This document shows, piece after piece, positions 5,318-58,246 of a DNA stretch of 61,242 nucleotides. The notes below the pieces were generated by a model that saw nothing but the letters and a program-made list of their open reading frames with translations, was not told the DNA's origin and searched no databases. This stretch comes from Pseudomonadota bacterium. GTDB taxonomy: Bacteria; Pseudomonadota; Alphaproteobacteria; Rickettsiales; UBA1997. Position 1 is the first letter of the stretch, and each line of letters starts with the position of its first letter. The stretch is from contig JAZKII010000058.1 in the NCBI GenBank assembly GCA_040384945.1, positions 1 to 61,242 on the forward strand, written 5' to 3'. The translations under genes were made by a program, and so were the position numbers.

Positions 5318-5365
5318 GGACGGGATTTTTAATCCCGTCCTAATGTTCATGTAAAATGTGACGAG
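5318..5365. repeat. Family-A half element (left hairpin plus spacer start)
   Basis: ggacgggatttttaatcccgtcctaatgttcatgtaaaatgtgacgag. The hairpin and the gttcatg..aaaatgtg spacer match the full elements, and the right hairpin is missing. Confidence 0.7.
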
Positions 5366-5372
5366 TATGGAT

Positions 5373-5456
5373 AGATCCTGAATCAAGTTCAGGATGACGA
5401 TGTGGGAGAAACGAGTCTAATAAAAACTCCGTCATCCTGAACTTGATTCAGGATCT
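5373..5456. repeat. Family-B long palindrome (27-bp arms)
   Basis: agatcctgaatcaagttcaggatgacg..cgtcatcctgaacttgattcaggatct. A second copy lies inside polA at 42661-42740. Confidence 0.85.
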
Positions 5457-5567
5457 AGTGTGAAGTTACAACAAAAGAAATGACGATGAGATAGATTTTG
5501 AAATTGCATTTGAAATTAAGAAGGATTTGATTCTGCTTTAGTTCACGCCAACTAATTTTTAAGAACC

Positions 5568-6908
5568 ATGACTCTAGATCCAGTTCTACTCGCCCGCATC
5601 CAGTTTGCTTTTACCATCAGTTTCCACATTATTTTCCCCGCCTTTACCATCGGACTCGCCGGCTATCTTGCTGCAATCGAAGCGCTTTACCTAAAAAGCA
5701 AAAACATAATTTACAAAGAAATCTACAAATTCTGGGTCAAAATTTTCGCCATAATTTTCGGTATGGGCGTTGTTTCTGGCGTTGTTTTATCTTACGAACT
5801 TGGCACTAATTGGGCTGGCTTTTCATTCGCTACTTCCAATGTTTTAGGTCCGCTTTTCGGCTTTGAAGTTTTAACTGCTTTTTTCCTCGAAGCCTCATTT
5901 TTAGGAATCATGCTTTTTGGCTGGGAACGCGTTTCTGCAAAAATGCACTTCACTTCAACTTGTATAGTTGCATTTGGAACTGTGGTTTCGGCATTTTGGA
6001 TTTTAGCCGCAAATAGTTGGATGCACACGCCACAAGGTTTCATGGTAAAAGATAATGTTTTCTATCCCGTAAATTGGCTGGAAATTATTTTTAATCCTTC
6101 TTTTCCATACCGCTTTTTCCACATGGTGATCGCCACTTATTTAACCTGCGCTTTCGTGGTGGCAGGTGTTTCTTCCTGGTTATTATGGAAAAACCGCGAG
6201 TCACTTCACGCCAAAATAATGCTCAAAATGGCGCTTAATTTTATCATAATTTTTGTGCCGTTGCAAATTGCAGTTGGTGACATGCATGGCCTAAACACGC
6301 TGCATCATCAGCCGGCAAAAGTTGCAGCGATGGAAGGAATTTGGGAAACTGAAAAAGGCGCGCCGCTGACACTTTTCGGTATTCCTGATGAAGAAAGTGA
6401 AACTACAAAATATGCAATCCGCATTCCAAAAATGGCGAGCATGATTTTAACCCACGATCCAAAAGGTGAAATTGCCGGATTAAAATCTTTCCCCAAAGAC
6501 CAACGCCCGCCAGTACTTCCGATTTTTATTTTCTTTCGCGTGATGGTTGGAATCGGTGTTTTAATGTTGGCAACCGGTGTAATGGCTTTGTACTTATATC
6601 GTAAAAGAAAACTTTTTGAAGCGAGATGGTTTCAACTTTGGTGCATGGCGATGACACCAAGCGGATTTATCGCATTGCTTTCGGGTTGGTTTGTAACTGA
6701 AATTGGCCGCCAGCCTTATGTAGTTTATGGTTTACTGCGAACAAGAGAAGCTGCGTCAGTTATAGCGGCAGGGCAGGTGTTATTTTCGCTGATTGTTTTT
6801 GTGGTGGTTTATTTTGTGATTTTCGGGTCGGCGACTTTTTATATTTTAAGACAAATTGCCAAAGGGCCGCAGAAAATTGAAGGTCCAATTCAAACCTTAA
6901 ATAAATAA
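5568..6908 (+). CDS. cydA: Cytochrome bd ubiquinol oxidase subunit I (short Q-loop type)
   Basis: N-terminus LARIQFAFTISFHIIFPAFTIGLA, and EIGRQPYVVYG matches the GRQPW block. It is 446 aa with multiple TM helices and is followed by cydB. Confidence 0.9.
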   Translation: MTLDPVLLARIQFAFTISFHIIFPAFTIGLAGYLAAIEALYLKSKNIIYKEIYKFWVKIFAIIFGMGVVSGVVLSYELGTNWAGFSFATSNVLGPLFGFEVLTAFFLEASFLGIMLFGWERVSAKMHFTSTCIVAFGTVVSAFWILAANSWMHTPQGFMVKDNVFYPVNWLEIIFNPSFPYRFFHMVIATYLTCAFVVAGVSSWLLWKNRESLHAKIMLKMALNFIIIFVPLQIAVGDMHGLNTLHHQPAKVAAMEGIWETEKGAPLTLFGIPDEESETTKYAIRIPKMASMILTHDPKGEIAGLKSFPKDQRPPVLPIFIFFRVMVGIGVLMLATGVMALYLYRKRKLFEARWFQLWCMAMTPSGFIALLSGWFVTEIGRQPYVVYGLLRTREAASVIAAGQVLFSLIVFVVVYFVIFGSATFYILRQIAKGPQKIEGPIQTLNK

Positions 6909-21100: not shown

Positions 21101-22057
21101 ATCAAATTGTCTGATTTATTAGCTAATGATTCTGACATTGAAGATGGCGCTGCAATTCAAAATCTAACTTTAGATAAGTTTGTATTTAGCAATCCGGCCA
21201 AAGGAAAAATTGTTAAAGATGTTGTAAACAATGTTATTATTTACACTCCCAACAAAGATTATAACGGTGCCGATTCTCTAACCTATCAGATCAAAGACAG
21301 CAATGGCGCTCTTTCTAACAAATCTACCATTAGCCTGACTATTAATTCTGTTAATGATGCACCGGTTATCTCCACTAAATTAACCGACAAATCAGTTAAA
21401 GCCGGCAACTTGTTTAATTACACCTTGCCGACAAATTCATTTATCGATGCTGATAAAGATGCTTTAACTTACAGTGCTAAATTAGCTGATGGTTCTGATC
21501 TTCCTTCCTGGTTAAAATTTGATTATGTCACCAAAACATTTAGCGGAATTTCTCCTTCCGGAGTTGCTTCACTTTTATCAATCAAAGTAATAGCTAGTGA
21601 CGGATCTTTGGATGCTTCGCAAAGTTTTTCTTTAAACATTACCAGCAATGTAATTAACGGAACTGTCAAAAATGAGACCCTTAATGGCACTGCATTAAAT
21701 GATGAAATTTACGGCAATGACGGAATTGACAACATCAAAGGCAATGCCGGAAATGACTTAATAATTGGTGGAAAGGGTGCAGATGTTCTTCTTGGCGGAG
21801 CTGGAAATGATCAATTCATCTTTAAGAATCTAACCGATTCAACCATCAATGAAAGTGACCTCATTTTAGATTTCATTAAAGGCGAAGATAAAATCAATTT
21901 ATCTGGTCTGGGATTTCATGATATTGGCGGCAGTTCTGAACTTAGTTTGGCATATTACTTCGATGGCAAAAATACTGTGATTGACGATCCTAATTCAAAC
22001 TTCGCCGTGAAACTTGCTGGTGAAATCAGCTTGGATCACAATGATTTTGCTTTTTGA
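9200..22057 (+). CDS. Giant (4285 aa) T1SS-type RTX / cadherin-like repeat protein with an embedded subtilisin (S8) plus P-domain module
   Basis: - Many GGxGxDxUx nonapeptide blocks, for example GGAGSDSLQGGAGDDILI and GGAGNDVIMEGGGNDEVDGGDGYD.
- S8 motifs HATTVAGVIAA and GTSFSAPIISGVVALML, followed by a P-domain-like DGDWKLQITD..WQLKFYG (nt about 12035-13385).
- A coiled-coil region at about 13600-14130.
- More than 12 repeats of about 100 aa of the type NEDT..LDVL..DSDVDGD..YTP..NYNGSD.F.Y.I.D..G...VNDAP.
- SWLSF dystroglycan-type repeats.
- A C-terminal RTX block ending in DHNDFAF. Confidence 0.9.
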   Translation: MSTTINKSTLDQAQSLLNQGKVHEAWQTLAESGDNYALNAAKITDKNNDSFAKTLVQETWENTVGMAQYNEKFDAVAKQHLDNYLTSIRKINEKLPPENDLFVLPSTTNIEASYKKALESNGISTKAAIDGIINTVVSGADGLLGWTNWLDLFDGKWSNDYDIEDSRISDPYLKTDYSRFEAVEKIVTIGTESIYDESLDYVKGYLDNLYGDSQSLLHNLLSKQIEDQQSNLTSEQIDNSQLNLEINTNQTSGFAGSNDLTQTGNVIGDADWRALMKIDVVNGDGFKNIAMASMVSDYYRPGNQEISTYQNFAKDYGQQISNLDNIVYNNSQTSQNLFNNNTQLNVNLSNLTNNAIGARTFVNIDPVVLDLNGDGVKLTSYNDSEVTFDVDNDGMSERTGWVSNQDGILVDDVNHDGKINNITETISEYYNTKDGSVADADGKYSSDGLAALKKLDSNHDSKFNSSDAKWSDLRIWQDANGDGVTDAGELKTLNEAGIKEFDLSAITQASKERNAGNIIFSKTTYTTTDNQTKQVAAVDFTTNPIGYEFNDVNLGKLATSEDGTKSLVIGDVNGAIVTASQDTAQNIFGNIGNDTIIGDARDNWISGGAGSDSLQGGAGDDILIIDSEDKQQNIDGGDGRDVVIINSNQGVSFNLAQSHIETAVGGNGDDVLIGGGTSNVFIDGGSGDDIIIGGAADDALAGGDGDDYLDGGYGDDIIRGHRGNDVLIGGIGNDYLEGGLDDDKVFGGAGNDVIMEGGGNDEVDGGDGYDLVKYNGSYKDYKISRDGVNYKVQDLTTGNIDSIKNIEGVRFNDVTIKLIDGNISPLPVADVIQIQNKSDTIFISKDDLLKNDLDVEGDALTIISATNSTGGFAELVKDAGGNVLGVRFTPDKSFIGNMSFDYDVKDSKGAYTIITQQNNDGTSVAAAMKARVTFKLASDPTDDLYAKQWYLSEINIQKAWQDYTGSGVKIGVFEQGDFNVNHTELDGNTLQSYKDDVAFRQVEQFSQHATTVAGVIAAERNGTGIVGVAYDAKLEGYSWNADATGLANLKNVDIANNSWGAVGEFYDNFSDPNNLNSVYASLIEESVEQGRNGLGTINIFAGGNARASGDNVNYHNLQNSRFVITTGSINQPGDLATLTQASTPFSTPGDAILVSAPGSNISSTGNLLTNANGSTFLGEFSSNQGTSFSAPIISGVVALMLQANPNLGYRDVQKILALSARQFNDPNTTWQENGATNWNGGAMHFSHDYGFGEVDAAAAVRLAETWNEVSDSYNENSFSASDNFRTLLQDNGVITKQFTISNSNLHNIETVEVQVNLTDLDISDLTIKLISPSGTESILMDKPGSSVYQGGLSFNFSSRAFLGENVDGDWKLQITDSKTGDISYLNSWQLKFYGDLDDGTNDTYIYTDEFAKMIDGTRGIIIDSDGGIDTINAAAVSSDSIINLNAGQISNIAGKDVLITGGIKGEQYYQQQSLLPIKQAQLATVNSQIGVKNQALAADNTEFAGIDVAINAKYSEANAKYAEYQTAARNVANDWLSQNSFWTAYTDGSSSYYIYRNNSTGAQTTLPKNEAQQKINNYNGLITTQNQKASEYQSEVSQYNSLLTRRDALPNEISGLQNDIVTLTKQVSQLQSDINFINAYLNDFNDGKASMIENAYAGDGNDTIIGNDQDNKIWGGRGSNTETGGVGKDTFIIKQNAATQDVITDFKVGEDKIDLSDFKNLDLASLNLSQLANDVIISFESGQKIILQNLQVNQVSVDSFVGITGAVNVIDGTVGNDVLNGTARIDLIKAGAGNDTILGLLGDDYIDGGAGDDILLGGDGNDILIGGSGNNQLHGGKGNDIIDFGTGAESSLTDSVNYGFGEEGSDSFVISDKSIFLKHKYDVIVDFDVNDPNEKIDLSRIKGVDQYSDLQIFQNGADAYVAMNSNIFGYAELVKLENVNIASLNSSKFIITNEAPQAANDVASTNEDSSVIINLLSNDSDDKTSLKGSNLTIITNPIHGLLTINSDGTTTYKPNANFNGTDFFEYKIIDSGGLTSSKATVNLTVNPVNDAPVIVSIIADQKIYITKDINLKVDNFFTEVDGESLSYSVTLADGSNLPSWLSFNSQTLILSGQAPISASTFNVKITATDQSGFSNSETFKVTVDDSILFGTTGDDTLNGTENIDVINGDTGNDIINGLGGNDILYGAAGNDQISGGYGDDKLYGEDGDDILKGDVGKDLLDGGNGNDKLYSSGSGSDDTLTGGAGSDTFIIGNDIISNDVITDFNISDPNEKIDLSAFKDVATDISQLTMDQIGSDTKISFAGQSKTILVKNVSLSQLTVAKFIGLTDNKNSTGSLTINGTSGNDTLVGGSGDDIIKGNNGNDTIKGGLGSNLLTGGVGDDIFVISKNPGKTDVITDLEAFDSVQFDGFATGVKLSDFAYTENGNSVTFNLGEGQNLMFQNIKAADVLYYFSFISQTSLSDSSSVISYTGTAGNDKIVITTNSRNGDSINGGDGNDLISGNQKDDIIIGGKGNDILRGGDWCDIFQIDKNPGDKDTILDLAIKDMPDSIVLKGFSNTNLASYPAVQNGNDVVVDLGDGQTLTIKNFKVADVPYIASYSKDIYVSSNNVSGTDGDDLISRFDIGSSVKGTVIMNGGKGNDVLKGSNFDKDYFVIDKNSGDKDFVRSIDTSNGDKVIFRGFGDDILNQIKFLPSSDSYTLIMDLGDGQILRTYGVQQSSFSTYFDIEKPFLDATDGNDILKTGYLSVATIDGKAGDDIITGNDLGNNLSGGDGNDVINSGSGNDNIYGGDGNDVINDKGGNNIIEGGAGNDIINTGAGTDIINGGAGDDIINGGDGGDTINGGDGNDKLYSSGSGSNDILTGGLGSDIFVIGNDIISNDIITDFDVTDPNEKIDLSNFATSKNGFSTLAKISDLNITQVGNDAKINFSSASKTITIKNVKVSDLTADKFYLNNLPTATITSATINEDASTTIDVLSAASDLDNDVLSISAIGSASHGVATIVTDAQGKQKISYIPTVNYYGTDSFAYTISDGRGGTVTKTISVQINSVNDLPVVTLDSAITNEDTKVILDVLAYSSDVDGDTLSISSVTNGAHGQVLSFTDSDGKRKISYTPTTNYNGSDSFTYKISDGHGGIVTKTVSVNISAVNDVPTATLTSVTTNEDNATILDVLAFASDVDGDVLIISGVTAASHAAVSIINSSDGKQKISYIPQANYNGNDSFSYTISDGHGGEIVKTVTVNVISVNDVPIALITSAVTNEDTPTILDVLASASDVEGDILSITNVGTATHGFTAIFIDSDGYQKISYTPVENYNGLDYFTYKISDGHGGVVTKTVSVNVVSVNDAPTITKILSNVTTNEDSVFIIITADKISAAFADADVNDYLTYAITSVNGITTIPSWLSIDNNNGEITSNNPTNEDVGNYNIIITATDLSGLAISQSFFLTVNNVNDAPTASITSIATNEDNLVKIDVLSAASDIDASDILSLTSVTNGLHGTASIITDDNGNKVISYVPNANYNGSDIITYTISDNNGASVTKELTVTVSAVNDAPIIVSAAQNQTVQSGKAFTYTLSNNLFSDVDGDSLTIKATLADGSPLPSWLSFDGSKFSGTPNVSLATNFAIKLMATDPSGASISQNFGINVTNPNNAPIAKDDVFSMNEDASLTISFASILKNDSDVEDKTNIQKLTKDNIIFHNPGNGTITVTDSGIIYTPKANYNGSDSLTYQIKDSSGALSNMALINLTIKAVNDAPVAASDSFVTDEDTAITIKISDLLANDSDVEDGVNIQNTTFDKFVFTNPGKGVIVKDAVNGTITYTPNKNYNGSDVIYYQIKDSSGVLSNKAAINLTVNAVNDGPLAVNDVFATNEDTPLTITFASILKNDSDVEDGVNIKKLTKDNIVFGDSVNGTITITDTGIIYAPNKDFNGSDVITYQIKDSGGDLSNVASINLTIKAVNDIAVAGNDSFIADEDKPITIKLSDLLANDSDIEDGAAIQNLTLDKFVFSNPAKGKIVKDVVNNVIIYTPNKDYNGADSLTYQIKDSNGALSNKSTISLTINSVNDAPVISTKLTDKSVKAGNLFNYTLPTNSFIDADKDALTYSAKLADGSDLPSWLKFDYVTKTFSGISPSGVASLLSIKVIASDGSLDASQSFSLNITSNVINGTVKNETLNGTALNDEIYGNDGIDNIKGNAGNDLIIGGKGADVLLGGAGNDQFIFKNLTDSTINESDLILDFIKGEDKINLSGLGFHDIGGSSELSLAYYFDGKNTVIDDPNSNFAVKLAGEISLDHNDFAF

Positions 22058-35618: not shown

Positions 35619-36230
35619 CTAATGCGAAAAAATATCAGCTGAACCAAACCCTTGAACATCAAGCTTGGCGCGGGTTGGTAAAAATCTCACGCAGGCTTCA
35701 AAAATCTCTACACGATTTTCTCTTTTTAACATTTCATCAAGTTTTGCTTTCAACTTATGCAAATGCAAAACGTCGGAAGCGGCGTATTCTAACTGTTTCT
35801 CGGTAATTTCAGCATTTCCCCAATCGGAAGTTTGTTGTTTTTTGGAAAGTTCAATTCCTAAAAGTTCATCGCAAAGTGATTTTAATCCATGGGCGTCGGT
35901 GTATGTACGAACTAATTTCGAAGCAATTTTGGTGCAGTAAATATTTTTGATTTCAACTTTTAAATAATGCTGCAAAGCCGCTAAATCAAAGCGGGCGAAG
36001 TGGAAGATTTTCTGAATTTTTTCGTCAGCCAAAAGTTTACACAAATTCGGCGCGTCATATTTTCCTTGTTCAAATTGCACCAAATGCGCATCGCCATTGC
36101 CATCGGAAATTTGCACCACGCAAAGACGATCGCGAATTATGTTTAAGCCCATTGTTTCGGAATCAATGGCAATTGAGCCTTTAAACTGAATGTCGGAAGG
36201 CAGATCGTTTTTATGTAAAAAATTTGTCAT
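35619..36230 (-). CDS. rnd: Short ribonuclease D-like 3'-5' exonuclease (DEDDy)
   Basis: IAIDSETMGL (Exo I), HFARFDLAAL (Exo II) and YAASDVLHL (Exo III YxxxD); 203 aa. Confidence 0.8.
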   Translation of the reverse strand: MTNFLHKNDLPSDIQFKGSIAIDSETMGLNIIRDRLCVVQISDGNGDAHLVQFEQGKYDAPNLCKLLADEKIQKIFHFARFDLAALQHYLKVEIKNIYCTKIASKLVRTYTDAHGLKSLCDELLGIELSKKQQTSDWGNAEITEKQLEYAASDVLHLHKLKAKLDEMLKRENRVEIFEACVRFLPTRAKLDVQGFGSADIFSH

Positions 36231-37220: not shown

Positions 37221-37250
37221 TATTTGACGGGAAATTATGCTTAAGTTTTG

Positions 37251-37343
37251 TACCACAACCCCCCAACCCCCCTTATCAGGGGGGCTTTGAGATCGAACTC
37301 GGATTAAAGCCCCCCTGATAAGGGGGGTTGTGGGGTTGTGGTA
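37251..37343. repeat. Family-D G/C-tract nested palindrome between hisB and nagZ
   Basis: taccacaaccccccaaccccccttatcaggggggcttt..aaagcccccctgataaggggggttgtggggttgtggta. Each arm also contains its own cccccc-ttatca-gggggg hairpin. Confidence 0.85.
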
Positions 37344-37359
37344 CGATTTTATATTATTT

Positions 37360-40827: not shown

Positions 40828-43632
40828 CTACTTCCAACAATCCGCCACAGTCACATCAACCTTCAACGGCACATCTAAAATCGCCGCATTTTCCATTTCA
40901 TATTTCAAAATCTTTGTCGCAATTTCCACTTCATTTTCTGGTGCTTCTACAATCAATTCGTCATGAATTTGTAAGATAATTTTTGATTGTAAATTTTCTT
41001 CCTTAAATCTTTTACTCAAACGAATCATCGCCTTTTTGATAATATCCGCGGCACTTCCCTGAATCGGCGCGTTAATCGCCAGGCGCTCAGCTTCGGCGCG
41101 GATCATCGGGTTTTTATTATTAATATCGCGGATAAAACATTTGCGCCCGGAAAGGGTTTGGACATAGCCATTTTTCCGAGCCAATTCGATGTAATTTTTC
41201 ATCGAAATATCAATTCCCGGATAAGTTTCTAAATAAGATTTTATATAAATTGCAGCTTCCTGACGTGGAATATCTAGTTGACGAGCCAGCCCGAACGCGC
41301 TGATTCCATAAATAATTCCGAAATTAATTGCTTTGGCTTTGGAGCGTAAAGAATCGTCAACTTCATCTTCTGTAACTCCGAAAACCTGCGCCGCTGTAAT
41401 GCGGTGAATATCTTTATCTTCTTTAAAGGCATTAATTAAATTTCCGATTTTTGCGGCATGAGCAATCACGCGCAGTTCAATTTGTGAATAGTCGGCGGAA
41501 ATTAAAAAATGATTTTTTTCAGCGATAAAACTTTCGCGGATTTTTTGGCCTTCCAAACTTTTTATCGGAATATTTTGCAGGTTTGGATACCTAGAGCTGA
41601 GCCTTCCGGTAATTGTTGAAGTTGTAGAAAAATGCGTGTGAATTCGGCCGGTTTGTGGGTTAATTTCTTCCGGCAAAGCATCGGTATAAGTATTTTTTAA
41701 TTTAGAAAATTTCCGGAAATCAAGAATTTTTCTTGCAATCGGATTTCCAGCCTCATCAAGCTCTTCAAGCACGCCAACACCGGTTGAAAGCGCTCCGGTT
41801 TTTTTTGATTTTTTGCCGGAAGCCAAACCCATTTTTTCAAATAAAACTTCCGAAAGTTGTTTGGCTGAAGCGATGTTAAATTCATGTCCGGCGAGGATGT
41901 AAATTTCGCTGCTTAATTCGGCGATTTTTTTACCGAATTCTTGTGAAAGTTGACGTAATTTTGCCACGTCAATTTTAATGCCGTTAGTTTCAATTTGCGC
42001 TAGAACCTCAATTAATGGGCGCTCAAAAGAAAGATAGGCTTCAGTTAATTTTTCAGGCGCAATTTTTGGCGCAAATATTTTGTAAAGTTGGTAAATTGCG
42101 AAATTTCTAAAAGTTAAAAATTCAGCTTTTTTTTCGGGATCGGCAAAAATTTCCGGCTCGCGATCTTTTTCAATTTCCGCAAAAACTTTGCCAAAACCTA
42201 ATTGTTCGACATCTTCGTTGAGATTAAGATCTATAAGCTCGCGTAAGTCATTTTTAACTGAAGAAGTTAAGAGGTGATGAATAGTTGCGACATCTTCGTA
42301 GGAATTTGCCGGAGAAAATTTTAAGAAATTTTTGGCATCGAAAAAGATTTTTTTAATTGAATCATCAGTCAGAATTTTTTCTAGAATTTCGATGTCAAAG
42401 CCTTCAGTTTCAATCTTTTCTGGTTCGTGATTAAAACTAAATAAATCAAAAGAGTGATTTTGATTTGGAGTTTTTGCCGATTTTTTTACTTCGAAATAAA
42501 GAATTTCTTTTGGAGAATCGCCTGATTTACAAGTTGAAATTGTGATGAAATTTTTATCGCGGTCGATTGTGACTTGGCCGTTTGTAGATGCTTCTTTGTT
42601 GAGTCGCGCGATTATTTCGGGAGATGAAATTAAAGTTTTTTGGCATGACGAAAACACGCTAGATCCTGAATCAAGTTCAGGATGACGGAGTTCTTGGGAA
42701 GATTTTACCACATCGTCATCATGAACTTGATTCAGGATCTGTTTTTCAACAGGAACAGCAGCATTTTCCGAAATTCCAAATTCTTTGCGAACTCTTGTAA
42801 TCAATGAATGAAAGCCTTGAATCTGCAAAAAAGAAATTAATTTATGCGGATCAAGGGCGCGAATTTCTAATTCATCCAAATGAATTCCTAACTCAACATC
42901 TTCTTTCAAAGCTGCTAAAATTTTTGAAAGTTTGGCTTTTTCAATTCCTTCGCTCAAAAGCTGGCGACGCTTTTCTTGCTTGATTTGATGCAGGTTTTCA
43001 AAAATATTTTCCAGATTTCCAAATTGCTTAATTAATTCGGCAGCGGTTTTTGGGCCAATGCCTTTTACGCCTGGAATGTTATCTGATGTGTCACCAATTA
43101 ATGACAACATATCTAAAACTTTTTCTGGCCCAACTTCGAATTTTTCTATAACTTGGGGAATTCCAATCATGCGGTTTTTCATCGAATCATACATGTGGAT
43201 ATTTTCTCCAACCAGCTGCATCAAGTCTTTATCCGATGAAACGATTAAAACTTCATAACCTTCAATTTCAGCTTTTTTGGCGATGGTTGCGATGATGTCG
43301 TCAGCTTCGAAACCAATTTTTTCAAGTATTGATAAATTCAATGATTCGGCGCTTTCACGAACAATCGAAAATTGCGGAATTAATTCTTCAGGGCAGGGTG
43401 GACGATTGGCTTTGTAAGCCGGATAAATATCATTTCTAAAAGTTTTAGAGCCGGAATCAAAAACAACAGCGGCGTGAGTTACATTAAGCCCGGCCAAAAG
43501 TTTAATTAACATATTGGTGAAGCCATAAACTGCACCAACCGGCGTGCCATCTGGTCTGGTTAAAGGTGGCAAAGAATGAAAGGCGCGAAATACGAAGCCA
43601 TAACCGTCAATTAAGGCGATTTTTTTGGACAT
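40828..43632 (-). CDS. polA: DNA polymerase I with an in-frame family-B palindrome insertion
   Basis: 5'-nuclease N-terminus LIDGYGFVFRAFH. Polymerase motifs ADYSQIELRV, RSKAKAINFGIIYG and LQIHDELIVE are present; 934 aa. Confidence 0.95.
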   Translation of the reverse strand: MSKKIALIDGYGFVFRAFHSLPPLTRPDGTPVGAVYGFTNMLIKLLAGLNVTHAAVVFDSGSKTFRNDIYPAYKANRPPCPEELIPQFSIVRESAESLNLSILEKIGFEADDIIATIAKKAEIEGYEVLIVSSDKDLMQLVGENIHMYDSMKNRMIGIPQVIEKFEVGPEKVLDMLSLIGDTSDNIPGVKGIGPKTAAELIKQFGNLENIFENLHQIKQEKRRQLLSEGIEKAKLSKILAALKEDVELGIHLDELEIRALDPHKLISFLQIQGFHSLITRVRKEFGISENAAVPVEKQILNQVHDDDVVKSSQELRHPELDSGSSVFSSCQKTLISSPEIIARLNKEASTNGQVTIDRDKNFITISTCKSGDSPKEILYFEVKKSAKTPNQNHSFDLFSFNHEPEKIETEGFDIEILEKILTDDSIKKIFFDAKNFLKFSPANSYEDVATIHHLLTSSVKNDLRELIDLNLNEDVEQLGFGKVFAEIEKDREPEIFADPEKKAEFLTFRNFAIYQLYKIFAPKIAPEKLTEAYLSFERPLIEVLAQIETNGIKIDVAKLRQLSQEFGKKIAELSSEIYILAGHEFNIASAKQLSEVLFEKMGLASGKKSKKTGALSTGVGVLEELDEAGNPIARKILDFRKFSKLKNTYTDALPEEINPQTGRIHTHFSTTSTITGRLSSRYPNLQNIPIKSLEGQKIRESFIAEKNHFLISADYSQIELRVIAHAAKIGNLINAFKEDKDIHRITAAQVFGVTEDEVDDSLRSKAKAINFGIIYGISAFGLARQLDIPRQEAAIYIKSYLETYPGIDISMKNYIELARKNGYVQTLSGRKCFIRDINNKNPMIRAEAERLAINAPIQGSAADIIKKAMIRLSKRFKEENLQSKIILQIHDELIVEAPENEVEIATKILKYEMENAAILDVPLKVDVTVADCWK
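42661..42740. repeat. Family-B palindrome inside polA, translated in frame
   Basis: agatcctgaatcaagttcaggatgacg..cgtcatcatgaacttgattcaggatct encodes about QILNQVHDDDVVKSSQELRHPELDSGS. This lies in the linker after the 5'-nuclease domain. Confidence 0.85.
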
Positions 43633-47041: not shown

Positions 47042-47109
47042 GTGGAGGATTTTTTAAGAAATTTTTTTGTTAAGAATTTATAATATATTTTTGAGATCGT
47101 ATAGAATTG

Positions 47110-47200
47110 AGCAGGACGGGGTTTGTAACCCCGTACTCACGTTCATGCAAAATTAATTGAACTTGAAAATGTGGACGGGGTTACAAACCCCGTCCAGCGC
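47110..47200. repeat. Family-A full double-hairpin element, 3' of the pilin-like gene
   Basis: agcaggacggggtttgtaaccccgtactcacgttcatgcaaaattaattgaacttgaaaatgtggacggggttacaaaccccgtccagcgc. Confidence 0.85.
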
Positions 47201-47281
47201 AGATTGGGTTATCACGTCATACGATTTTTATGCAAGTGTGGATTTGTATGTACAAAATACATCTTTCAAGCAAACACAAAA

Positions 47282-47999: not shown

Positions 48000-50900
48000 T
48001 TATGAATTTTCGTCACCGCCTTTATCTCCATCAAATCTTTCAGTAAATTTTTTGAAGGCTTCAGGTGAATCTAAACCTTTAGTAGCTTTTGCAATTTCTT
48101 TTGATCTGTCTTCTTGCTCTTGCACAAATTTTTCTGCTGCTTCTGGAGATTCCAAGCTGTCATATTTTTTAACTAGCTCTTCAGCGCGTTCATAAGAACC
48201 GCTATGTGGAGTTTTGTTGTTAGGGTCTTGGTCTCTTGCTGCATCTTCTTTTTCCATTAAAGTTCTGGCGTGCTCAGAAAGAGCATCAGCTTTCTCAGCT
48301 GCATTACCAAGTCTGGTCGCATCGTCGAATTCTTTTTTACCTTCTTTTTCATCTTTGACTGCATTTTGATATTTTTCTTCTTTAGGATCTAGCGCCTTGC
48401 CTGTTGCTTTATCAGCCATTCTTTTCATAAGAGAAGGGCGTTCTTTAGCAGCTTCTTCTTTAGTTGCGCCTGCGGTTGCTATTTTTTCTTTGGCGGCAGT
48501 TTTTTTCTCGGCTATGGTTTGTGTAGTTCCAGCTTGTTTATCTTTTAATTTGGTAATGTTTTTATTTCTAGGTTCTACCGGAGCTTTAGCAGCGCTTCCT
48601 GAAGTTGGAGAGGCACCAGTAGGCGAAGTTGCGCCCGCTGTTGCACCTGCTGCTGATCCATCACTAGTTGAGGTAACAAGTGGATTTGTAACTTCTGATT
48701 CTGTCGCTGCTGCTTTGCTTTGTTCTTCATCTTTGTCACGCAGTAAGTCAGCTCTTTGTTGACCTTCTTCGCTAATTTCACTAGCAGTTGTTGCTGCGGT
48801 GTCGAATTCTTCGGTTGCTTGAAGTTTCTCTTTGATATTTTCCAATTTGGTATCGATTTGTCTGACAGCAGCACCAGCCAAATTTTGTTTTTTGGTAAGT
48901 TCAGCAAGTTTTGGATCTTCAGCACCACCCATTTGTCTGAGTTGGGATTGAGCTTTTCTAGCTTCCTTATCTTCTTTTCTGGCAGCAGAGTCGAGAATTC
49001 TTGGTATAGTGCCGGTAAAACCTTCGTGAGTTTTTTTAGCTTTTTCAGTTAATTCTGTTACTAATGCAGCTCTTTCTATGGATTCAGGTTTATTTTTATG
49101 TTCCTCAACTGCTGCGGTAGCGGTGTCGTAATCTTGCATTGCAGTTGCGCGGCCTTTTTCCAAATTCTTTTTCTCACCTTTAACTGCGGTAAGTTTTTCT
49201 TTACCTTGTTCTTTAGCAGCTTTGAGCAAGTCTTTCTTGGTGTCTTCTTTGATTGTTGCACCTTGTTTACCAATTGGATTATATCTTTTGGCTGCAGCTG
49301 ATATTCTTCCTCCGACTTGTTCAGAGAATCTGGCATTGTCAGGAATTGCGGCAATTTCTTTATTATAAGCTTCTTCTTTGGCGATGCCGGTCATGGTGTT
49401 TAAATCAGGAGTTTTAATTCCAGATTTTTTCTCATTTTCATTTTGTTTCACTCGATCTTGTATCATCTTCTTATCTGCATCCGGACGAGCAAAATTGGTT
49501 CCCGGAGCCATTCTAACCAAAGCTGTTTCTTTTTCTAATTGTTTGGTGGCTTCATAACCTTTTGGATCTGACAGTCTTTCAGCCATATCAGCTGCCGAAC
49601 TCATGGCGTTTGCTGCAGAGCTGACAGCTTTTCCGGCAGCTGCTGCTGTTTTTTTAACTGCCATCGCTGGTAATAAAACTGGTGATGCAAGAACCAGTCC
49701 TGCTGTTTTCAATTTATTTTCAGAAGTAAACTTAGCAGCAGAATCAATGTTATTACCAATTGAATCTCTAGTATTTACTATAGCTCTGCCTGTTGCTTTT
49801 CCAGCTCCTGCAACAGCTCCGACTGCTGCAATTCCAGCTCCTGCAACAGCTCCGACTGCCGCACCTCCAGCTCCTGCAACAGCTCCGATTGCCGCACCTC
49901 CAGCTCCGATTGCTGCACTGCCGGCTGCTTTTGCTGTTGTACCTGGATTGTGCAAAGCAAATTCAGCGCCTGCTGATATAGCTTTTCCAGCTGCTGATAT
50001 AGATTTTCCAGCTTGAGCTCTGGCTTCATCACCTTTTTCTGTTGGGCTCATAAGTGTTGCTGCGCCCATTGCTGCACTTGCAGCTCCAGATGCTGCGCTA
50101 GATGCAGCACCACCAATTGCTTTGCCGACAGAAGTTTCTGATGCAGCTTTTGCAGCGCTACTCATTGCGCTGCCGACGGCTCCAGCTGCGCCACCGACAG
50201 TTTTAGCTACGTCCGAAAGTTTTGCGGCAGTATTTTTTTCGACATCAATATTGCCTTTGGCAATATTTTCTTTGAGCGTTTTAGCATCTTCGGTACTCAG
50301 GCCTTTTCCTCCAGCTTGAGCAACAGAAAGTTTAAGATCTGATGATTTTTCGCTTAGAGATTCATTGAGAGTTTTAGCGCCCATGAATCTTTGTTTTAGC
50401 ATGCTGGCAGCAGCTCCGCCGATAGTATCTCCTTCGAATTTGAAGCCTTTATCCTTGTTCAATCTATCAATATCCTCATCTTTTAGGCCGAGATCTTTAC
50501 CTGCTTTGGTTTCAGCTGCATTTCTAACACCTTTCAGTATTTTGTTTCGTTCCCCTTCTTTCATACCAGAAAGCGCGACTTCATTTTTGTTGAAATAATC
50601 TTTTTCAGCTTTTTTACCGGCTTTGGACATGGCGCTTTTATTGGAGAAATCTTTGGCATTGTTGGCTTTGCGGGCGTTGCGTTCTTTATCCGCCATGGCT
50701 CCGGAATCGAAAAGAGCTTTATCCATTCTTTGCACGACTTGGCCACCGGTTTTATTCCATACATCTTGACGGGCTTTTTTAGCCATAGCACTAACTTCTT
50801 TAGCTGCATCAGCAATGCCTTTGCCCATTGCGCTGGCTGATAAACCACCACTAATTGAAGCGGCAAGATCAGTCATAAAGCCAATGAATTTATTCATTAG

Positions 50901-53900
50901 TGAGGCAATTACCCAAATGAAGAGAATGGAAAATAATGATGGAATACCTTCTGGATTTCCGATGTTGCCAACATCAGACTGCGCATTAGTTCTTGGTGGC
51001 AATGAGGCGATTGTCCAGAATGATAGTAATGTGATGCGGGTGATGATGTTGATGGTCCAGACTTCATCCCAGCAGATTTTGTAACCAAGTGAAAGTTTAA
51101 TAACTTCATACATCAACATATTGAAGAAGGCGAGAGTGGTGAGTAAGAAAATTTGTTGCAGCGAGAAGCCGATCAATTGCTTGAGCCAATTGTCGAACAT
51201 TTCCTTGGTTTGGTTGAAGAGCGTAAAGATGAGGAATATCGGCCCCAAAGTGAAGAGGATCGAGATAAATATCTGCGCCGTTAAATATAGTAATACGGCG
51301 TTGGCAACTGAGTAAACATAAAGCATGAAGCTTTGATAGATGATGAGCAAATAAGCCCAACCGAAGATACTGGCGAATAATAAAGCGGAGACTTTTTTCT
51401 GCACGGCTTGAGAGAAGAACATGCTGAAAACATTATCGACGCTGCCGAAAAGAACAGATTTATCGTAATAATCACTATTGGCAATTGCATCAGAGACGGC
51501 GTGGTTAGTTGAATCGTCAAAGGAGGCGGCCATCATGAAGGCGAGATAATCGGTGCCGTTTTTAAAGAACCTCACCACTAAATTATTGAACCAATCCCAA
51601 CCGGTTTCGCCGATAAAGAGATAGATTATACCGATCTTGATGATGCGGTTCATAATCTCGGAGTGGTTTAATTCACTGGTTCCCATTAGATAACCAACGC
51701 CGTAAAAGCTAAACATCACCACGAAACACATGGTTACGATTGCTTTGAACCTAGGATCGGCAATGACCAGTTTGTAAACTCTTTCTGCCTGACCAACGTT
51801 AGCTTTTTTACAATAATATTGTTTAGCGCAATTAGTGCCATCGCTGTCAATGCAGGTAGAACCTGTGTTGGTGTCGATAATGTCGTCTAGAGTGTCAACA
51901 TATAAAGGGTTATCTGTTCTTACGCCATCATTTGAGATAATGCTGCCAGTTGTGCTGCAATTACGTGTTTTTGGGCCATCCATAACTTCAATTACAGGAG
52001 CAATAACGCCGCCAATAATACTGGAAATGGTGCCTGTAACTTCGCTTTTTACCTTAATATTAACAAAATATGAGCCGCTATTATTGGCATATTTATTGGC
52101 GCAGTAATATTGTTTTATGCAGGTTTGAGTAGCTAACTCAGTAGCAGTACAAGTTTTGCCGGTATTAGGAAGGTTTGTAGTGCAAATAGTAGTGCAATTT
52201 TGACCCTCAGAGTCACAAGTACTTCCTGAATAATAACCCCGATTTCCATCGGAAGCATCGCAGCTATCTGTGTTATAAATTGGATTTGCAAGTTTGCTAC
52301 CATCGGCTGAGGATCCAGTAGCATCGGCTCCGCTGGAGAGATTACAATTTGTAATTTCAGGATCCATGATCTTGAAAGATAGTCTTAATTTCTGGATTGA
52401 GCTTTCAATATCATCTTGATCATCTTGTGATTTTGCTTTTAGGGTAGAAGCAGAATAATATTGGTAAGTGTGGCAGTAGAAATTAGCGCCGGCAACTGAA
52501 GCAACGCCATTATCATTTGCAGTACAATCCTTGGTGGTTCCGTTAACAACTAAAGAATAATTATTAGTGCGTAAGATATTGCCATAACCATCAAATCCAT
52601 AACTGGTTGAAATATTTGGTGGAGTGCCTGCTGGTGTTGTGCTTGTAGGTGGAGTAATCTCGATTAATTGGGGTTGATCGCTAATAGCAATCGGATCGGA
52701 GTTTTTGCAGAGTATGCCGCTGTCATCTTCTAAGCATAGTCGGCCTTGCAACCATTGGCCGTTAGAAAAATCAAGCATTCCGGATAGATTGATTTTAAAA
52801 CCATTGGAGCCGGAATAAGCGCTACCGATTACAGTGTTGTTGGTATAGGCATTGTAGGCACCGTTATTATTGGCAACGCTCACGTCATTCAAATCAGAAC
52901 CATCAAGCATGAAGAATCTTAACCTGCCTTCTGTTCCAAAAGTCAGAGGTTGTTGGAGCTGAAAAATTTTATTATTGCCAGTTGTATCTGTGGTTCCGGA
53001 ATCAACAAAGTTTTCAAGATTTCCATAACTACCATTAAAGGCACTGATTTTGGTAAGTCCTTTGGTTATTGTTGAATCTGCAAGTTCTGTATCAGAATAT
53101 CCTGTAGTGCCGTTGCGGATTAATGATACTTTACTGGTATAATTTTCCAGGTCGTAACATTGAATCATATTAGATAAAGCAATTTTACCTGACAGGCTGG
53201 CATTATCTTTCATCTTGTTAGAGCAGGCAGTGCAGGTTGCAGAAGTGATAGTGGTGGTGTAAGATTCTGAAGGGCAGGCGGTTGTAGTTGGTGCTGTTAC
53301 TGTACAAGTTCCTTTTTGATAAAGAGGAGAAACACCATCAGGACAAGTTATAGTGGATTGGCAATTAGTAAGTGGACAATAATTAGATGTAGATGCGCTA
53401 TCAGAACATTCACTGGCAACTGCCTTACAACCGATCAATGTTCCGCTACTATTATAGTCTTGGGTGCAGGCTGTATTTAAAACATAATCAGATGCTGTTC
53501 CTCTGCAAAGTAATGCAGGTCTTGGTTCAATCATCATTGCCATTCCAATGCCGCATTGACGATTTCCGGCGCTTGTTGTCCAGGCTCCATCCCAACTCTT
53601 AGGTGAGAAGCGGATTACTTGTCCTTTTCTAACAAAGGATAAATTTGACCAGCTTATTGTCGAGCTTGATGCTGGTACGGTTAAATTGGCAAGAGGATCT
53701 TTTGATGATGTAGGTATTGTAGCGAAATTATCATATTCATATATATCATCACTAGCAAAAGTTCCTTCCGGATTCATAATGCGGGCCTTAATTGTGCAAT
53801 TTCCGCTGCCGTTAAGCATGGTAAATTTTACAAAACCGGACTTTTGCATTTTTAATTCGTGGTATTTATTAAATTTGACCCCGATTCCTTTGCCGCAAGT

Positions 53901-55274
53901 GCCTGAGCTTGTAAGTTTTGCAACGGAAAGTGTTTTTCCGATTTCAAGTGGAATTTCTTTATCGTCGCTCCAACTACTATTTGTAACTGCGGTTGAGTAA
54001 GAAACTCCATTACTATCCGTAACGACTAACGTAACATTGCAGGAAGTATCGCCGGTTAGAGACTTGAATGAAACTCGGAAAGGAGTATCAGAAGTGGGAT
54101 TTAAAATCGAAACTGAGGTAGTGGAAAGATCTCCCAGAATTTTCCCTGAAGTTGCCGGAGTGGAATCTATGTTGGTACAGACTCCCGTGGCAATAGTACA
54201 AACTGTGGAAGGGAAAACCAGGTCATCGGTAAAAGAAGTTAAATTATCTCCGGTCCAGCGAATAACACCGCCATAAGATGTAAGAATATCGGATGCAGCG
54301 TCGGAAGATAAAGGAAATACAGCTATAGCTAAAGAGTTATCAGCATTGGTATATCCGGCTGAAACAGAGTAAGGATTGGTGGTTTTATTATGACAATTTG
54401 CTTCGGTTAAAGTACTCCCAGTATAGTCGCAAGTCCAGGCTAGAGCATCAGGTAAAAGAGGAGTTCCTTTGGTTCCAGTTTGTTCGGTTGATTGAGAAGT
54501 ATCAAAATTATAACCCTCAGGATGAGGAATTACATAAGCAATAATTCTTCGTGCACCACTATAAGTAGCATTGCTAATTGCTCCGGCTCCAGAACCTACA
54601 GTAGTACTGCCGTCAGACCATGATCCGCTAAATTTCAAATTAATAGTTTGTCCGTTTCTGACATCAAAAAATACATCAGTTGCTCCGCTCGACCAAGCTG
54701 CTTTTTTTGCATGAGGAATAGGATTGTTAGCTTGAACATGAATAGGATTATAATCCAGACTATCACCTAAATGAATTGTTCCAATTGCGCGGATAATGAT
54801 TTCTGATCCTGGCCTGATTGTAACACCACTATTAGCAGTAGTTGATCTTTTATCGGTTGAAATCCAGTCTGGTTCGGGAGTTCCAGAAACTCCGGTACCG
54901 GATAAACAGTTTTGTATGCAGGTAGTAACGCATAAATTTTTATAAGTGGCATCAGTAAAACCAAAGCAGCCAGTAGTACTGGTTTGAGAAGCGCCGGCTT
55001 CATCATAAACTGTAGTACTACCGGCAGTGAAACATGATTTAAGCCCACTGCCTTGAGTTGCATCAGTCAGTTCTAGTGAGCCATCATAGGTACATTTTTC
55101 TTGTTGGGAGTTGGCGGAAACCTCAATTGTTTGAGTTTCATATTCACCAAAATCATCGGCATCGATACAACCTTGGTCAGTGCAGGAAGAAGAAAGGGCA
55201 AAAAATAGTAATAAAACCGCCGTCTTGGCGCAGATTTTCTGATGCTGGATTTTTTTGAGCCAATTCTTGATCAA
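48000..55274 (-). CDS. 2424-aa envelope protein: signal peptide, about 1150-aa Cys/Thr/Ser/Gly-rich N-domain, TrbL/VirB6-like polytopic core, about 940-aa Ala/Lys/Gly/Glu-rich tail
   Basis: The signal is KTAVLLLFFALSSSC. The polytopic block (nt about 50830-51760) contains ILFTLGPIFLIFTLFNQTKEMFDNWLKQLIGFSLQQIF. From memory this resembles the GP(I/L)F..LF..T...F..W..L signature of TrbL/VirB6. The tail is low-complexity with AGAGGAAVGAV repeats. Confidence 0.55.
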   Translation of the reverse strand: MIKNWLKKIQHQKICAKTAVLLLFFALSSSCTDQGCIDADDFGEYETQTIEVSANSQQEKCTYDGSLELTDATQGSGLKSCFTAGSTTVYDEAGASQTSTTGCFGFTDATYKNLCVTTCIQNCLSGTGVSGTPEPDWISTDKRSTTANSGVTIRPGSEIIIRAIGTIHLGDSLDYNPIHVQANNPIPHAKKAAWSSGATDVFFDVRNGQTINLKFSGSWSDGSTTVGSGAGAISNATYSGARRIIAYVIPHPEGYNFDTSQSTEQTGTKGTPLLPDALAWTCDYTGSTLTEANCHNKTTNPYSVSAGYTNADNSLAIAVFPLSSDAASDILTSYGGVIRWTGDNLTSFTDDLVFPSTVCTIATGVCTNIDSTPATSGKILGDLSTTSVSILNPTSDTPFRVSFKSLTGDTSCNVTLVVTDSNGVSYSTAVTNSSWSDDKEIPLEIGKTLSVAKLTSSGTCGKGIGVKFNKYHELKMQKSGFVKFTMLNGSGNCTIKARIMNPEGTFASDDIYEYDNFATIPTSSKDPLANLTVPASSSTISWSNLSFVRKGQVIRFSPKSWDGAWTTSAGNRQCGIGMAMMIEPRPALLCRGTASDYVLNTACTQDYNSSGTLIGCKAVASECSDSASTSNYCPLTNCQSTITCPDGVSPLYQKGTCTVTAPTTTACPSESYTTTITSATCTACSNKMKDNASLSGKIALSNMIQCYDLENYTSKVSLIRNGTTGYSDTELADSTITKGLTKISAFNGSYGNLENFVDSGTTDTTGNNKIFQLQQPLTFGTEGRLRFFMLDGSDLNDVSVANNNGAYNAYTNNTVIGSAYSGSNGFKINLSGMLDFSNGQWLQGRLCLEDDSGILCKNSDPIAISDQPQLIEITPPTSTTPAGTPPNISTSYGFDGYGNILRTNNYSLVVNGTTKDCTANDNGVASVAGANFYCHTYQYYSASTLKAKSQDDQDDIESSIQKLRLSFKIMDPEITNCNLSSGADATGSSADGSKLANPIYNTDSCDASDGNRGYYSGSTCDSEGQNCTTICTTNLPNTGKTCTATELATQTCIKQYYCANKYANNSGSYFVNIKVKSEVTGTISSIIGGVIAPVIEVMDGPKTRNCSTTGSIISNDGVRTDNPLYVDTLDDIIDTNTGSTCIDSDGTNCAKQYYCKKANVGQAERVYKLVIADPRFKAIVTMCFVVMFSFYGVGYLMGTSELNHSEIMNRIIKIGIIYLFIGETGWDWFNNLVVRFFKNGTDYLAFMMAASFDDSTNHAVSDAIANSDYYDKSVLFGSVDNVFSMFFSQAVQKKVSALLFASIFGWAYLLIIYQSFMLYVYSVANAVLLYLTAQIFISILFTLGPIFLIFTLFNQTKEMFDNWLKQLIGFSLQQIFLLTTLAFFNMLMYEVIKLSLGYKICWDEVWTINIITRITLLSFWTIASLPPRTNAQSDVGNIGNPEGIPSLFSILFIWVIASLMNKFIGFMTDLAASISGGLSASAMGKGIADAAKEVSAMAKKARQDVWNKTGGQVVQRMDKALFDSGAMADKERNARKANNAKDFSNKSAMSKAGKKAEKDYFNKNEVALSGMKEGERNKILKGVRNAAETKAGKDLGLKDEDIDRLNKDKGFKFEGDTIGGAAASMLKQRFMGAKTLNESLSEKSSDLKLSVAQAGGKGLSTEDAKTLKENIAKGNIDVEKNTAAKLSDVAKTVGGAAGAVGSAMSSAAKAASETSVGKAIGGAASSAASGAASAAMGAATLMSPTEKGDEARAQAGKSISAAGKAISAGAEFALHNPGTTAKAAGSAAIGAGGAAIGAVAGAGGAAVGAVAGAGIAAVGAVAGAGKATGRAIVNTRDSIGNNIDSAAKFTSENKLKTAGLVLASPVLLPAMAVKKTAAAAGKAVSSAANAMSSAADMAERLSDPKGYEATKQLEKETALVRMAPGTNFARPDADKKMIQDRVKQNENEKKSGIKTPDLNTMTGIAKEEAYNKEIAAIPDNARFSEQVGGRISAAAKRYNPIGKQGATIKEDTKKDLLKAAKEQGKEKLTAVKGEKKNLEKGRATAMQDYDTATAAVEEHKNKPESIERAALVTELTEKAKKTHEGFTGTIPRILDSAARKEDKEARKAQSQLRQMGGAEDPKLAELTKKQNLAGAAVRQIDTKLENIKEKLQATEEFDTAATTASEISEEGQQRADLLRDKDEEQSKAAATESEVTNPLVTSTSDGSAAGATAGATSPTGASPTSGSAAKAPVEPRNKNITKLKDKQAGTTQTIAEKKTAAKEKIATAGATKEEAAKERPSLMKRMADKATGKALDPKEEKYQNAVKDEKEGKKEFDDATRLGNAAEKADALSEHARTLMEKEDAARDQDPNNKTPHSGSYERAEELVKKYDSLESPEAAEKFVQEQEDRSKEIAKATKGLDSPEAFKKFTERFDGDKGGDENS
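49801..49920. repeat. 33-bp tandem repeat (3.6 copies) in the tail of the 2424-aa gene
   Basis: The unit ccagctcctgcaacagctccgactgc.gca..t starts at 49801, 49834 and 49867, with a partial copy from 49900. It encodes (GAGGAAVGAVA)n on the minus strand. Confidence 0.9.
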
Positions 55275-58127: not shown

Positions 58128-58246
58128 TCGAGCTAGCATCTCGACGACGCTACGCTTTGCTCGATGACCTAATTCTTTTTTCTTCGCGACTTCTTATTCC
58201 AGGTCATCGAGCAAAGCGCTTTAGCGCGTCGTCGAGATGCTAGCTC
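58128..58246. repeat. Family-C complete palindromic element (about 119 bp)
   Basis: tcgagctagcatctcgacgacgctacgctttgctcgatgacct..aggtcatcgagcaaagcgctttagcgcgtcgtcgagatgctagctc. Confidence 0.9.

Follow-up and report, generated by a model that had tools for sequence, protein, structure and literature searches.

The polA gene on the 61,242-nt contig JAZKII010000058.1 (the window) contains a long palindrome that is translated in frame within DNA polymerase I. The host is an uncultured, low-GC, Rickettsiales-like freshwater bacterium. The palindrome is probably a tail-to-tail (TT) dimer of a CGTC-2-like repetitive extragenic palindrome (REP) that was inserted in the linker of PolA, is read as a passenger peptide, and may have spread via recognition of single-stranded DNA. 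Elements of this kind are already known, as REPs and Rickettsia palindromic elements (RPEs) have been found inside genes, including that of PolA. New are the lineage and the unit type, a series of five lineages in which the arms and the spacer of one insertion can be compared, the repeated colonization of the PolA linker, and a GIY-YIG gene cassette bordered by the unit type of the window. How the element moves is something that we infer.

The original prediction had placed a palindrome of 80 to 84 bp, with 27-bp arms and one mismatch, inside the Pol I open reading frame (ORF), and it is borne out as an 80-nt palindrome, or 82 nt with the tails of its units (Table 1). The plus strand reads AGATCCTGAATCAAGTTCAGGATGACG, 26 nt of spacer, and then CGTCATCATGAACTTGATTCAGGATCT. 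Allowing up to 3 mismatches, the window contains four matches to the arm, the count expected from 100 shuffles being 0.00. The RNA fold of the region, which had been proposed as a check, gave a stable hairpin of -43 kcal/mol (z = -8.7), and DNA folds gave -27 to -29 kcal/mol (z = -9.5 and -10.7). Each arm also forms a small hairpin of its own, composed of a CGTC tag, an 8-bp stem, the 5-nt loop CTTGA, and a 3-nt tail, and in the DNA fold of a single unit, the tag and the tail stay unpaired. All four units of the window read CGTC-ATC... on the tag strand. Since both tags of the polA element point inward, toward the spacer, the element is a TT dimer.

Table 1. Features of the window and of two related contigs (L003 and L154); positions are those of the window unless a contig is named
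Feature	Position	Strand	Description
Host gene polA	40828..43632	minus	934 aa, intact ORF; insert at residues 298-324
Whole element in polA	42660..42741	.	TT dimer of two CGTC-tagged REP units; 82 nt with 3-nt unit tails
Palindrome proper	42661-42740		80 nt; arms 42661-42687 and 42714-42740, 27 nt each, one mismatch
REP unit 1	42660..42687	minus	CGTC-ATCCTGAA-CTTGA-TTCAGGAT-CTA; perfect 8-bp stem; encodes RHPELDSGS(S)
Spacer (loop of the long hairpin)	42688..42713	.	26 nt
REP unit 2	42714..42741	plus	CGTC-ATCATGAA-CTTGA-TTCAGGAT-CTG; stem mismatch at 42721; encodes QILNQVHDD
Second TT dimer copy	5372..5457	.	Intergenic, yceI (4681-5259) to cydA (5568-6908); perfect 28-nt arms, 30-nt spacer
TT dimer on L154 (low-GC lake contig)	L154 150-302		Window unit type
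GIY-YIG gene on L154	L154 348-641		97 aa; TAG stop is the terminal TAG of the element
Second dimer on L154	L154 641-732		
Second palindrome family	2581-2661		In valS (1584-4157); inverted pairs of GGACGGGGTT-TGT-AACCCCGTCC; also 47108-47201; partial 5320-5345
Third, C-rich palindrome family	37250-37344; L003 8760-9090		Contains …CCCCCCAACCCCCCTTATCAGGGGGG…
Two nested perfect palindromes	58130-58246		Intergenic; 21-nt arms 58130-58150/58226-58246; 18-nt arms 58153-58170/58201-58218

The palindrome is translated as QILNQVHDDDVVKSSQELRHPELDSGS, exactly the peptide given in the earlier reading of this DNA. Pfam assigns the two 5'-nuclease domains of the window PolA to residues 4-261 and DNA_pol_A to residues 558-934, which confirms that the element is read through in the linker joining the 5'-nuclease region to the remainder of the enzyme, here before the central domain; a 3'-5' exonuclease domain gave no Pfam match in this protein. 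NCBIfam classifies it as a full-length DNA polymerase I equivalog (996.7 bits; cutoff, 720), and columns such as D714-R721 and Q888/H890-E892, which we take to be polymerase motif residues, are invariant across 72 PolA orthologues. The intact ORF, the full-length score, and the invariant columns indicate that polA is not a pseudogene, a possibility that had been raised against the prediction. An AlphaFold model built from the 72 orthologues (mean pLDDT, 84.4) has its last 5'-nuclease helix at residues 275-284 and the start of the central domain at about residue 327, and residues 291-323 have pLDDT values below 50 and no secondary structure. The linker hosting the insert is accordingly modeled as disordered, and 27 to 31 extra residues should be tolerated there. 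The insert appears to be translated as a passenger peptide without a required function. A stand-alone gene for a 203-aa 3'-5' exonuclease or RNase D-like protein (35619-36230, minus strand) lies 5 kb from polA and is syntenic in all relatives.

CGTC-tagged REPs were defined by Di Nocera, De Gregorio, and Rocco (2013, BMC Genomics 14:522; PMC3733652). In that survey, the repeats have an unpaired terminal CGTC (variants TGTC and CCTC), a hairpin with an 8- to 9-bp stem starting with AT and a loop of 4 to 5 nt, and a 3-nt tail that is mostly CCA. They form four families in five phyla, chiefly in alphaproteobacteria, and often occur as inverted dimers 20 to 100 bp apart; most dimers are HH (tags outside), and TT dimers (tags inside) are rare and tend to have variable spacers. 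CGTC-1 is equated with Neisseria dRS3 and R. conorii RPE-6, and CGTC-4 is equated with RPE-4. Intragenic copies encode 20 to 30 residues, and many are in replication and repair genes, including that of DNA polymerase I. The supplement records a CGTC-3 dimer in the PolA of R. palustris (residues 338-367 of 1012) and a Sulfurovum CGTC-2 unit that encodes RHSELVSGS. The survey reports no association with a transposase (PMC3733652).

By the definition in the text of the survey, the window unit belongs to the CGTC REP superfamily, as it has the tag, the stem and loop, and the 3-nt tail and occurs in dispersed inverted dimers (PMC3733652). It is best described as CGTC-2-like, an assignment from its 8-bp stem and 5-nt loop lengths rather than from a family consensus; it shares with CGTC-2 REPs the unpaired CGTC tag, the AT-starting stem of 8 bp, the 5-nt loop, and the 3-nt tail, and its peptide RHPELDSGS compares with the Sulfurovum RHSELVSGS. 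As in the surveyed REPs, the copies are mostly intergenic, often dimeric, and without a transposase nearby, with occasional coding copies of 20 to 30 residues in proteins that include DNA polymerase I and tRNA synthetases. They differ in the tail of the window-type unit, which is CTA (variant CTG) and not the usual CCA; in their TT arrangement; and in their host, a lineage outside the survey. REPINs and GTAG REPs are also short hairpins with an unpaired tag, usually come in inverted pairs able to form a single long hairpin, are nonautonomous, and are thought to be handled as single-stranded DNA; the window tag, however, is CGTC instead of GTAG, and the unit falls outside the REPIN-RAYT system. 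Rfam returned nothing for the whole window at gathering thresholds and, when relaxed, only miRNA-precursor models, which score any long hairpin. Literature searches by peptide motifs and by the DNA motif found nothing relevant.

When one genome per species was scanned for the 21-nt core of the arm, at least 120 stretches matched, and the matches listed come from Sphingomonadales, Bacteroidota, Treponema, candidate-phyla bacteria, Nitrospirota, a metagenome-assembled genome (MAG) of Nanoarchaeota, and a Rickettsia endosymbiont. The original prediction had treated the repeat as a feature of this genome; a repeat element in frame it is, but it is not private, as units of the superfamily are found across phyla. 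In the matched loci, the unpaired flanks (GTCAY ... RTC) and the loop (CTTGW) are constant, the stem varies with compensation, and the units are mostly inverted pairs. When only the flanks and loop were specified, without any assumption of pairing, 883 kb of diverse genomes gave 227 matches, compared with 7 in shuffled sequence. These matches contain 15 distinct stems, and all six free stem positions are Watson-Crick paired in 196 of them versus 49 with permuted partners. The copies are dispersed, with two dimers in the window, more on the related contig L001, and 84 unique perfect TT dimers collected from metagenomes. In an Alphaproteobacteria MAG and two other genomes (L056 47-244, L127 237-870, and L051 1528-1630), the unit forms same-strand tandem arrays, not inverted pairs, with regular spacings (42/93 nt, ~145 nt, and 82 nt).

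A palindrome of this size might also be a classical miniature inverted-repeat transposable element (MITE), that is, a derivative of a DDE transposase such as IS630/Tc1 with 27-nt terminal inverted repeats and a TA target-site duplication that moved as double-stranded DNA. In 26 of the 84 unique copies, the GATC...GATC core has TA on either side, and IS1595-type transposase genes are present on two related contigs (L236 and L239). However, this TA is the last two bases of the unit's own 3-nt tail (CTA, variant CTG), for which reason a TA target-site duplication of an IS630-type MITE was rejected. The termini vary independently (TA/TA in 26 copies, CA/TG in 11, and mixed in 20), and filled and empty sites show no clean duplication, the inserted block being larger than the palindrome. 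In addition, each supposed terminal repeat is itself a hairpin whose stem co-varies across phyla with fixed unpaired flanks, which is unexpected for a double-stranded site, and there are single units as well as units in the opposite relative orientation. A MITE origin is highly improbable, and the REP dimer remains the preferred description of the element.

Exactly one of the six frames is open in the polA copy, and none is open in the intergenic copy between yceI and cydA, which has stops in all six. For the left arm, a single frame of three is open (ILNQVQDD), and for the right arm, two are (RHPELDSGS and VILNLIQD), with the frame of the right arm set by the length class of the spacer: spacers of 26 and 38 nt work, and one of 30 nt leads to a stop. 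The two bases before the core of the 84 perfect TT dimers are TA in 44 and CA in 22, and with TA in this position, the sole open frame starts with TAG. The boundary codon is CAG in the window polA, AAG in its relatives, and TAG in most copies, which are untranslatable. Long ORFs contain about 10 of the 84 dimers, and in each of these the left arm is read as IL(K/N)QVQDD. The right arm is read as (R/C)HPEL(V/D)SGS in seven Pfam-confirmed hosts from lake metagenomes, namely, an AMP-binding synthetase, a BioD-type protein, an FAD/NAD-binding protein, PrmC, a PD-(D/E)XK nuclease, an AFG1 ATPase, and a GT1 glycosyltransferase, and the coding copies replace TAG by CAG, AAG, GAG, or TGG. The palindrome measures 80 nt (82 nt with tails) in the window and 92 nt in relatives, none of which is a multiple of 3, so the proposed divisibility of coding copies by 3 does not hold for the palindrome itself; the constraint falls instead on the left-arm frame and the spacer length class. 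The insert survives in polA because the left arm landed in its one open frame, the spacer length class keeps the right arm open as RHPELDSGS, and CAG or AAG stands at the boundary in place of TAG. The idea of a pervasive in-frame invasion holds insofar as such invasion is common in this group, with perfect copies read through in at least seven further enzymes, but most copies are intergenic and not translatable.

These frame rules also bear on whether the element could be an intervening sequence, such as a mini-intron or mini-intein that is removed before PolA matures. Nothing direct speaks for this beyond the presence of a discrete insert in an essential gene. The 27 residues have no intein or intron features, Rfam returned only generic hairpin noise, and the strict rules that the coding copies obey (left-arm frame, spacer class, and TAG replaced) would be needless if the element were spliced out, which makes removal hardly credible. 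Dimers in genes also seem to seed local tandem duplications: the BioD-type gene on L167 (4856-4933) repeats a 32-residue block with the right arm, which L199 (920-997) has without the repeat, and in the AFG1 ATPase on L210 (5182-5268), three consecutive copies of the right-arm peptide (…SSKTQNTLRHPELVSGS) are present.

The alignment of PolA orthologues, which had been called for, shows that the peptide is lineage specific. An insert occupies the same position in all nine of the other PolA clusters with 90-92% identity (938 aa), and in orthologues with no more than 75% identity, only a short linker of unrelated sequence is present. The insertion boundaries are identical at the DNA level in five lineages (the window, L001, L003, L005, and L007). 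The simplest reading of these sequences is that one dimer entered the polA linker in the common ancestor of the window organism and its relatives at 90-92% identity. As the window is a MAG contig and repeats are classic points of misassembly, a repeat-induced chimera was considered as well. The nine clusters, however, come from NCBI, ENA, JGI, and Logan assemblies of different samples, one of them (P0002) being present on 26 contigs, and synteny is conserved on both sides of polA in the relatives, leaving a virtually negligible chance of an assembly artifact.

Within this orthologous series, the arms are kept and the spacers are exchanged. Relative to the family consensus, the arms of the window copy have 1 difference in 54 positions and those of the relatives have 4 to 11. 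Between the window and L001, L003, or L005, the arms differ by 9-13%, compared with 32-35% at four-fold degenerate sites; the L007 arms differ from those of the window by 20%. The two arms of the relatives' polA copies have 2 to 7 mismatches with each other. The polA spacers are of three unrelated types, one of 26 nt in the window and two different ones of 38 nt in the relatives, whose polA genes are otherwise 93-95% identical to one another; of 37 spacer positions compared between L001 and L003, 15 agree, with 95.4% identity in the rest of polA. The spacer type of L001 (peptide AKREMSSSSNSQH) recurs in the prmC copy on L191 (AERKMSSSSNYQY).

The intergenic copy between yceI and cydA gives the same picture. 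It had been placed at 5373-5456 and described as almost identical to the polA copy, which is true of the arms, these being identical, but not of the spacers, which share only the first 6 and the last 5 bases, and its extent has been revised (Table 1). This dimer is common to the window, L143, and L001, with conserved arms, and L007 is without it. L143 and L001 have one 25-nt spacer type, and the window has an unrelated 30-nt type, so the pattern of kept arms and swapped spacers is found at both orthologous sites examined. Other positions vary in occupancy: an insertion of ~130 nt containing a dimer lies upstream of polA in L001 and L007, the site being empty in the window, L003, and L005, and a dimer between cydB and cydA in L001 has no counterpart in the window. 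In L007 (~4190-4420, upstream of polA), the spacer of the orthologous dimer has gained ~140 nt relative to that of L001, which indicates that TT-dimer spacers accept insertions as well as replacement. Beside the yceI-cydA dimer, L001 (22530-22590) and L143 (~1335-1375) have a small hairpin with CGTC on both sides (CGTCATTCTTGAGCACAAATTATCTAAGAATGACG); at the matching position, the window has a partial copy of the GGACGGGG family instead.

The PolA linker has also been colonized independently. In L235 it holds an HH dimer of another CGTC unit with 11-bp stems, in L236 a decayed single CGTC-2-like unit, and in L237 and L009 a shared decayed TGTC...CCA unit with the canonical CCA tail; the linker of L008 has no CGTC unit.

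The slow change of the arms raises the possibility that the hairpin is kept for a function, either as an mRNA structure that tunes the synthesis or stability of PolA or through the peptide as a functional addition. A function for REP-decorated replication and repair proteins was speculated on by Di Nocera et al. (PMC3733652). The arms evolve about three times more slowly than the four-fold sites, the PolA linker of related lineages and of R. palustris has taken repeated insertions, and the mRNA hairpin is very stable at -43 kcal/mol. However, the copy of the relatives is decaying, with its 2 to 7 arm-arm mismatches, and in L007 it diverges at a neutral rate. The entire spacer peptide has been exchanged, the model predicts disorder for the peptide, and PolA orthologues with no more than 75% identity lack the insert. 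The intergenic copy, which has no coding context, also shows kept arms and a swapped spacer. A retained function is distinctly unlikely, and the insert is better regarded as a REP dimer carried along as a passenger.

RPEs were reportedly described by Ogata et al. in 2000 and 2002 as in-frame inserts in housekeeping genes of Rickettsia. The element of the window behaves in the same way, as a palindromic repeat of a Rickettsiales-type bacterium that is found in frame in housekeeping genes with intact ORFs (polA and the seven Pfam-confirmed hosts) and tolerated as an extra peptide. A closer comparison is offered by L071, a locus of a Rickettsia endosymbiont, where ileS carries two in-frame palindromic inserts. 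One of the IleRS inserts (…ILCHPGAKIPGSS…CFLDTVDKPRYDT…) matches the RPE4 model TIGR03777 (37.3 bits; cutoff, 23.95), and the DNA of this RPE4-positive segment holds GTCAT-ACCGTGG-CTTGT-CCACGGT-ATC, a unit that shares its flanks and loop (GTCAT...CTTGT...ATC) with that of the window but has another stem. RPE4 differs from the window element in its stem sequence and in having its dimer tags outside rather than inside, and RPE-1 is much longer (~150 bp). The curated RPE models of NCBIfam gave no match to the window peptide or to three related peptides at E values of up to 10, and the positive control matched. The shared flanks and loop, together with the lack of a match to these models, indicate RPE-like behavior and building plan outside the curated RPE families.

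A lead on how the units may spread comes from the NTS repeat of Neisseria, CGTCATTCCCGCGMAVGCGGGAATCYRG, which is bound and cut, only as single-stranded DNA, by SsnA, a small GIY-YIG nuclease whose gene is flanked by the repeats (NTS-ssnA-NTS) (Chenal et al., 2025, Nat Commun 16:2388; PMC11893778). The three bases before the NTS palindrome matter for cutting, and the C right after it matters for binding; genomes rich in related motifs include those of Rickettsia, Wolbachia, and Sphingomonas (PMC11893778). The window unit likewise has a conserved GTC just before the palindrome and a C just after it. The collected loci were probed with a consensus for small GIY-YIG proteins; seven loci matched, and all five that were checked were confirmed by Pfam. 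On L154, the GIY-YIG gene stands between two dimers (Table 1), which reproduces the order of repeat, small GIY-YIG gene, and repeat with the unit type of the window. On L238, the GIY-YIG gene persists with eroded flanking units. The L154 protein has 1122 homologues at E values of 1e-10 or less, the named ones of which are called GIY-YIG nuclease family protein. For its subfamily, Pfam gave only GIY-YIG, NCBIfam gave nothing meaningful, and PDB gave a weak UPF0213 match, with no assignment to cd10448. The differences from the Ssn system are that the window unit lies outside the degenerate Ssn motif, that the window has no such gene, that the L154 protein is placed only in Pfam GIY-YIG, and that the Ssn study concerned the control of transformation, not coding insertions.

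By analogy with this system, spread of the family would depend on an Ssn-type GIY-YIG nuclease that recognizes the hairpin as single-stranded DNA, and the GIY-YIG protein of the clade would bind or cut single-stranded DNA carrying CGTCATCCTGAACTTGATTCAGGATCTA. Gene conversion between dispersed copies, or repair once the tags have been cleaved, would account for the upkeep of the arms and the replacement of the spacers. The Ssn-type enzyme step is offered as a supported hypothesis. A bolder and unlikely extension is that the tags of the TT dimers are cut by a cognate GIY-YIG nuclease, with cut-repair swapping the spacer and conversion keeping the arms, so that the dimers would act as hypervariable peptide cassettes in essential proteins, and that the recolonization of PolA reflects an interaction of the hairpin with replication or repair. 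If this were true, a REP dimer in a gene would be a small, self-renewing hypervariable peptide cassette, and the repeated colonization of the PolA linker, as well as of dnaE, uvr, and rec genes known from the literature, would mean more than mere tolerance. On L154 (1-150), L238 (3228-6811), and L239 (299-3791), dnaE is called as an 831-aa ORF ending in …AYFSVERV(KN) and a stop, followed by a separate ORF of 205 to 322 aa with no Pfam match; on L154, the dnaE stop lies just before the first REP dimer, and dnaE may be truncated or split at a REP-associated site.

Several points weigh against reading the polA palindrome as a REP dimer that was spread through recognition of single-stranded DNA and is translated as a passenger. 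Conservation of the arms could reflect selection on an RNA or DNA hairpin function and not conversion. The exact inserted length is not recoverable, since the nearest insert-free orthologue, at 75% identity, is too diverged in the linker; the length of the palindrome is no multiple of 3; and translation of the insert would follow from the integrity of the ORF. No GIY-YIG gene or transposase was found in the window or on the polA contigs of the relatives (L001 to L009 in the case of GIY-YIG). There is also no recurrent neighbor family, as 142 ORFs neighboring the units in diverse genomes matched 150 families, none more than twice, and the Y1_Tnp (RAYT) family is likewise in no more than 2 of the 142. 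The degenerate Ssn motif, HGTCWYN(0-2)YYVSBRHN(0-5)WNVSBRGN(0-2)RNCYNB, has 0 matches in the window, L154, and L001; it does match the CGTC-1 units at the Rickettsia locus L071. Finally, L154 is not tied to the organism of the window.

With the REP dimer in polA, the range of coding palindromes, which were first observed in Rickettsia, grows to include uncultured Rickettsiales-like bacteria from fresh water, where the unit is of another type and shorter. It also provides a natural series in which one ancestral polA insertion can be traced over five lineages, with arms kept or rehomogenized, spacers swapped, and some copies decaying. The GIY-YIG gene flanked by the window unit type, which the published Ssn motif would miss, is a concrete lead on the spread of CGTC REPs. 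For annotation, low-complexity inserts of 25 to 30 residues (ILKQVQDD...RHPELVSGS) should be expected in real enzymes, along with many spurious small ORFs made of such peptides.

Other repeats are present in the window (Table 1). The second host gene named with the original prediction, valS, is verified by NCBIfam (1009.9 bits), and its ORF is continuous across its palindrome; a reading as leuS, suggested by a Pfam match to the LeuRS editing domain, was rejected on the NCBIfam result. The partial copy of the valS palindrome family at 5320-5345 abuts the intergenic CGTC dimer. On L003, copies of the C-rich family flank a small gene for a DUF559 protein (Vsr-like endonuclease) that lies between polA and a glycosyltransferase gene and is missing from the window; this nuclease gene was rejected as a partner of the CGTC units because the palindromes flanking it are of the different, C-rich family. 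The nested palindromes at 58130-58246 are unrelated in sequence to the other families. The window also contains two giant genes, at 9200-22057 and 48000-55274. The product of the first, of 4285 aa, combines subtilase, P-domain, RTX, and many cadherin/Big repeats, and that of the second, a 2424-aa protein also present in the relatives, has a TrbL/VirB6 domain.

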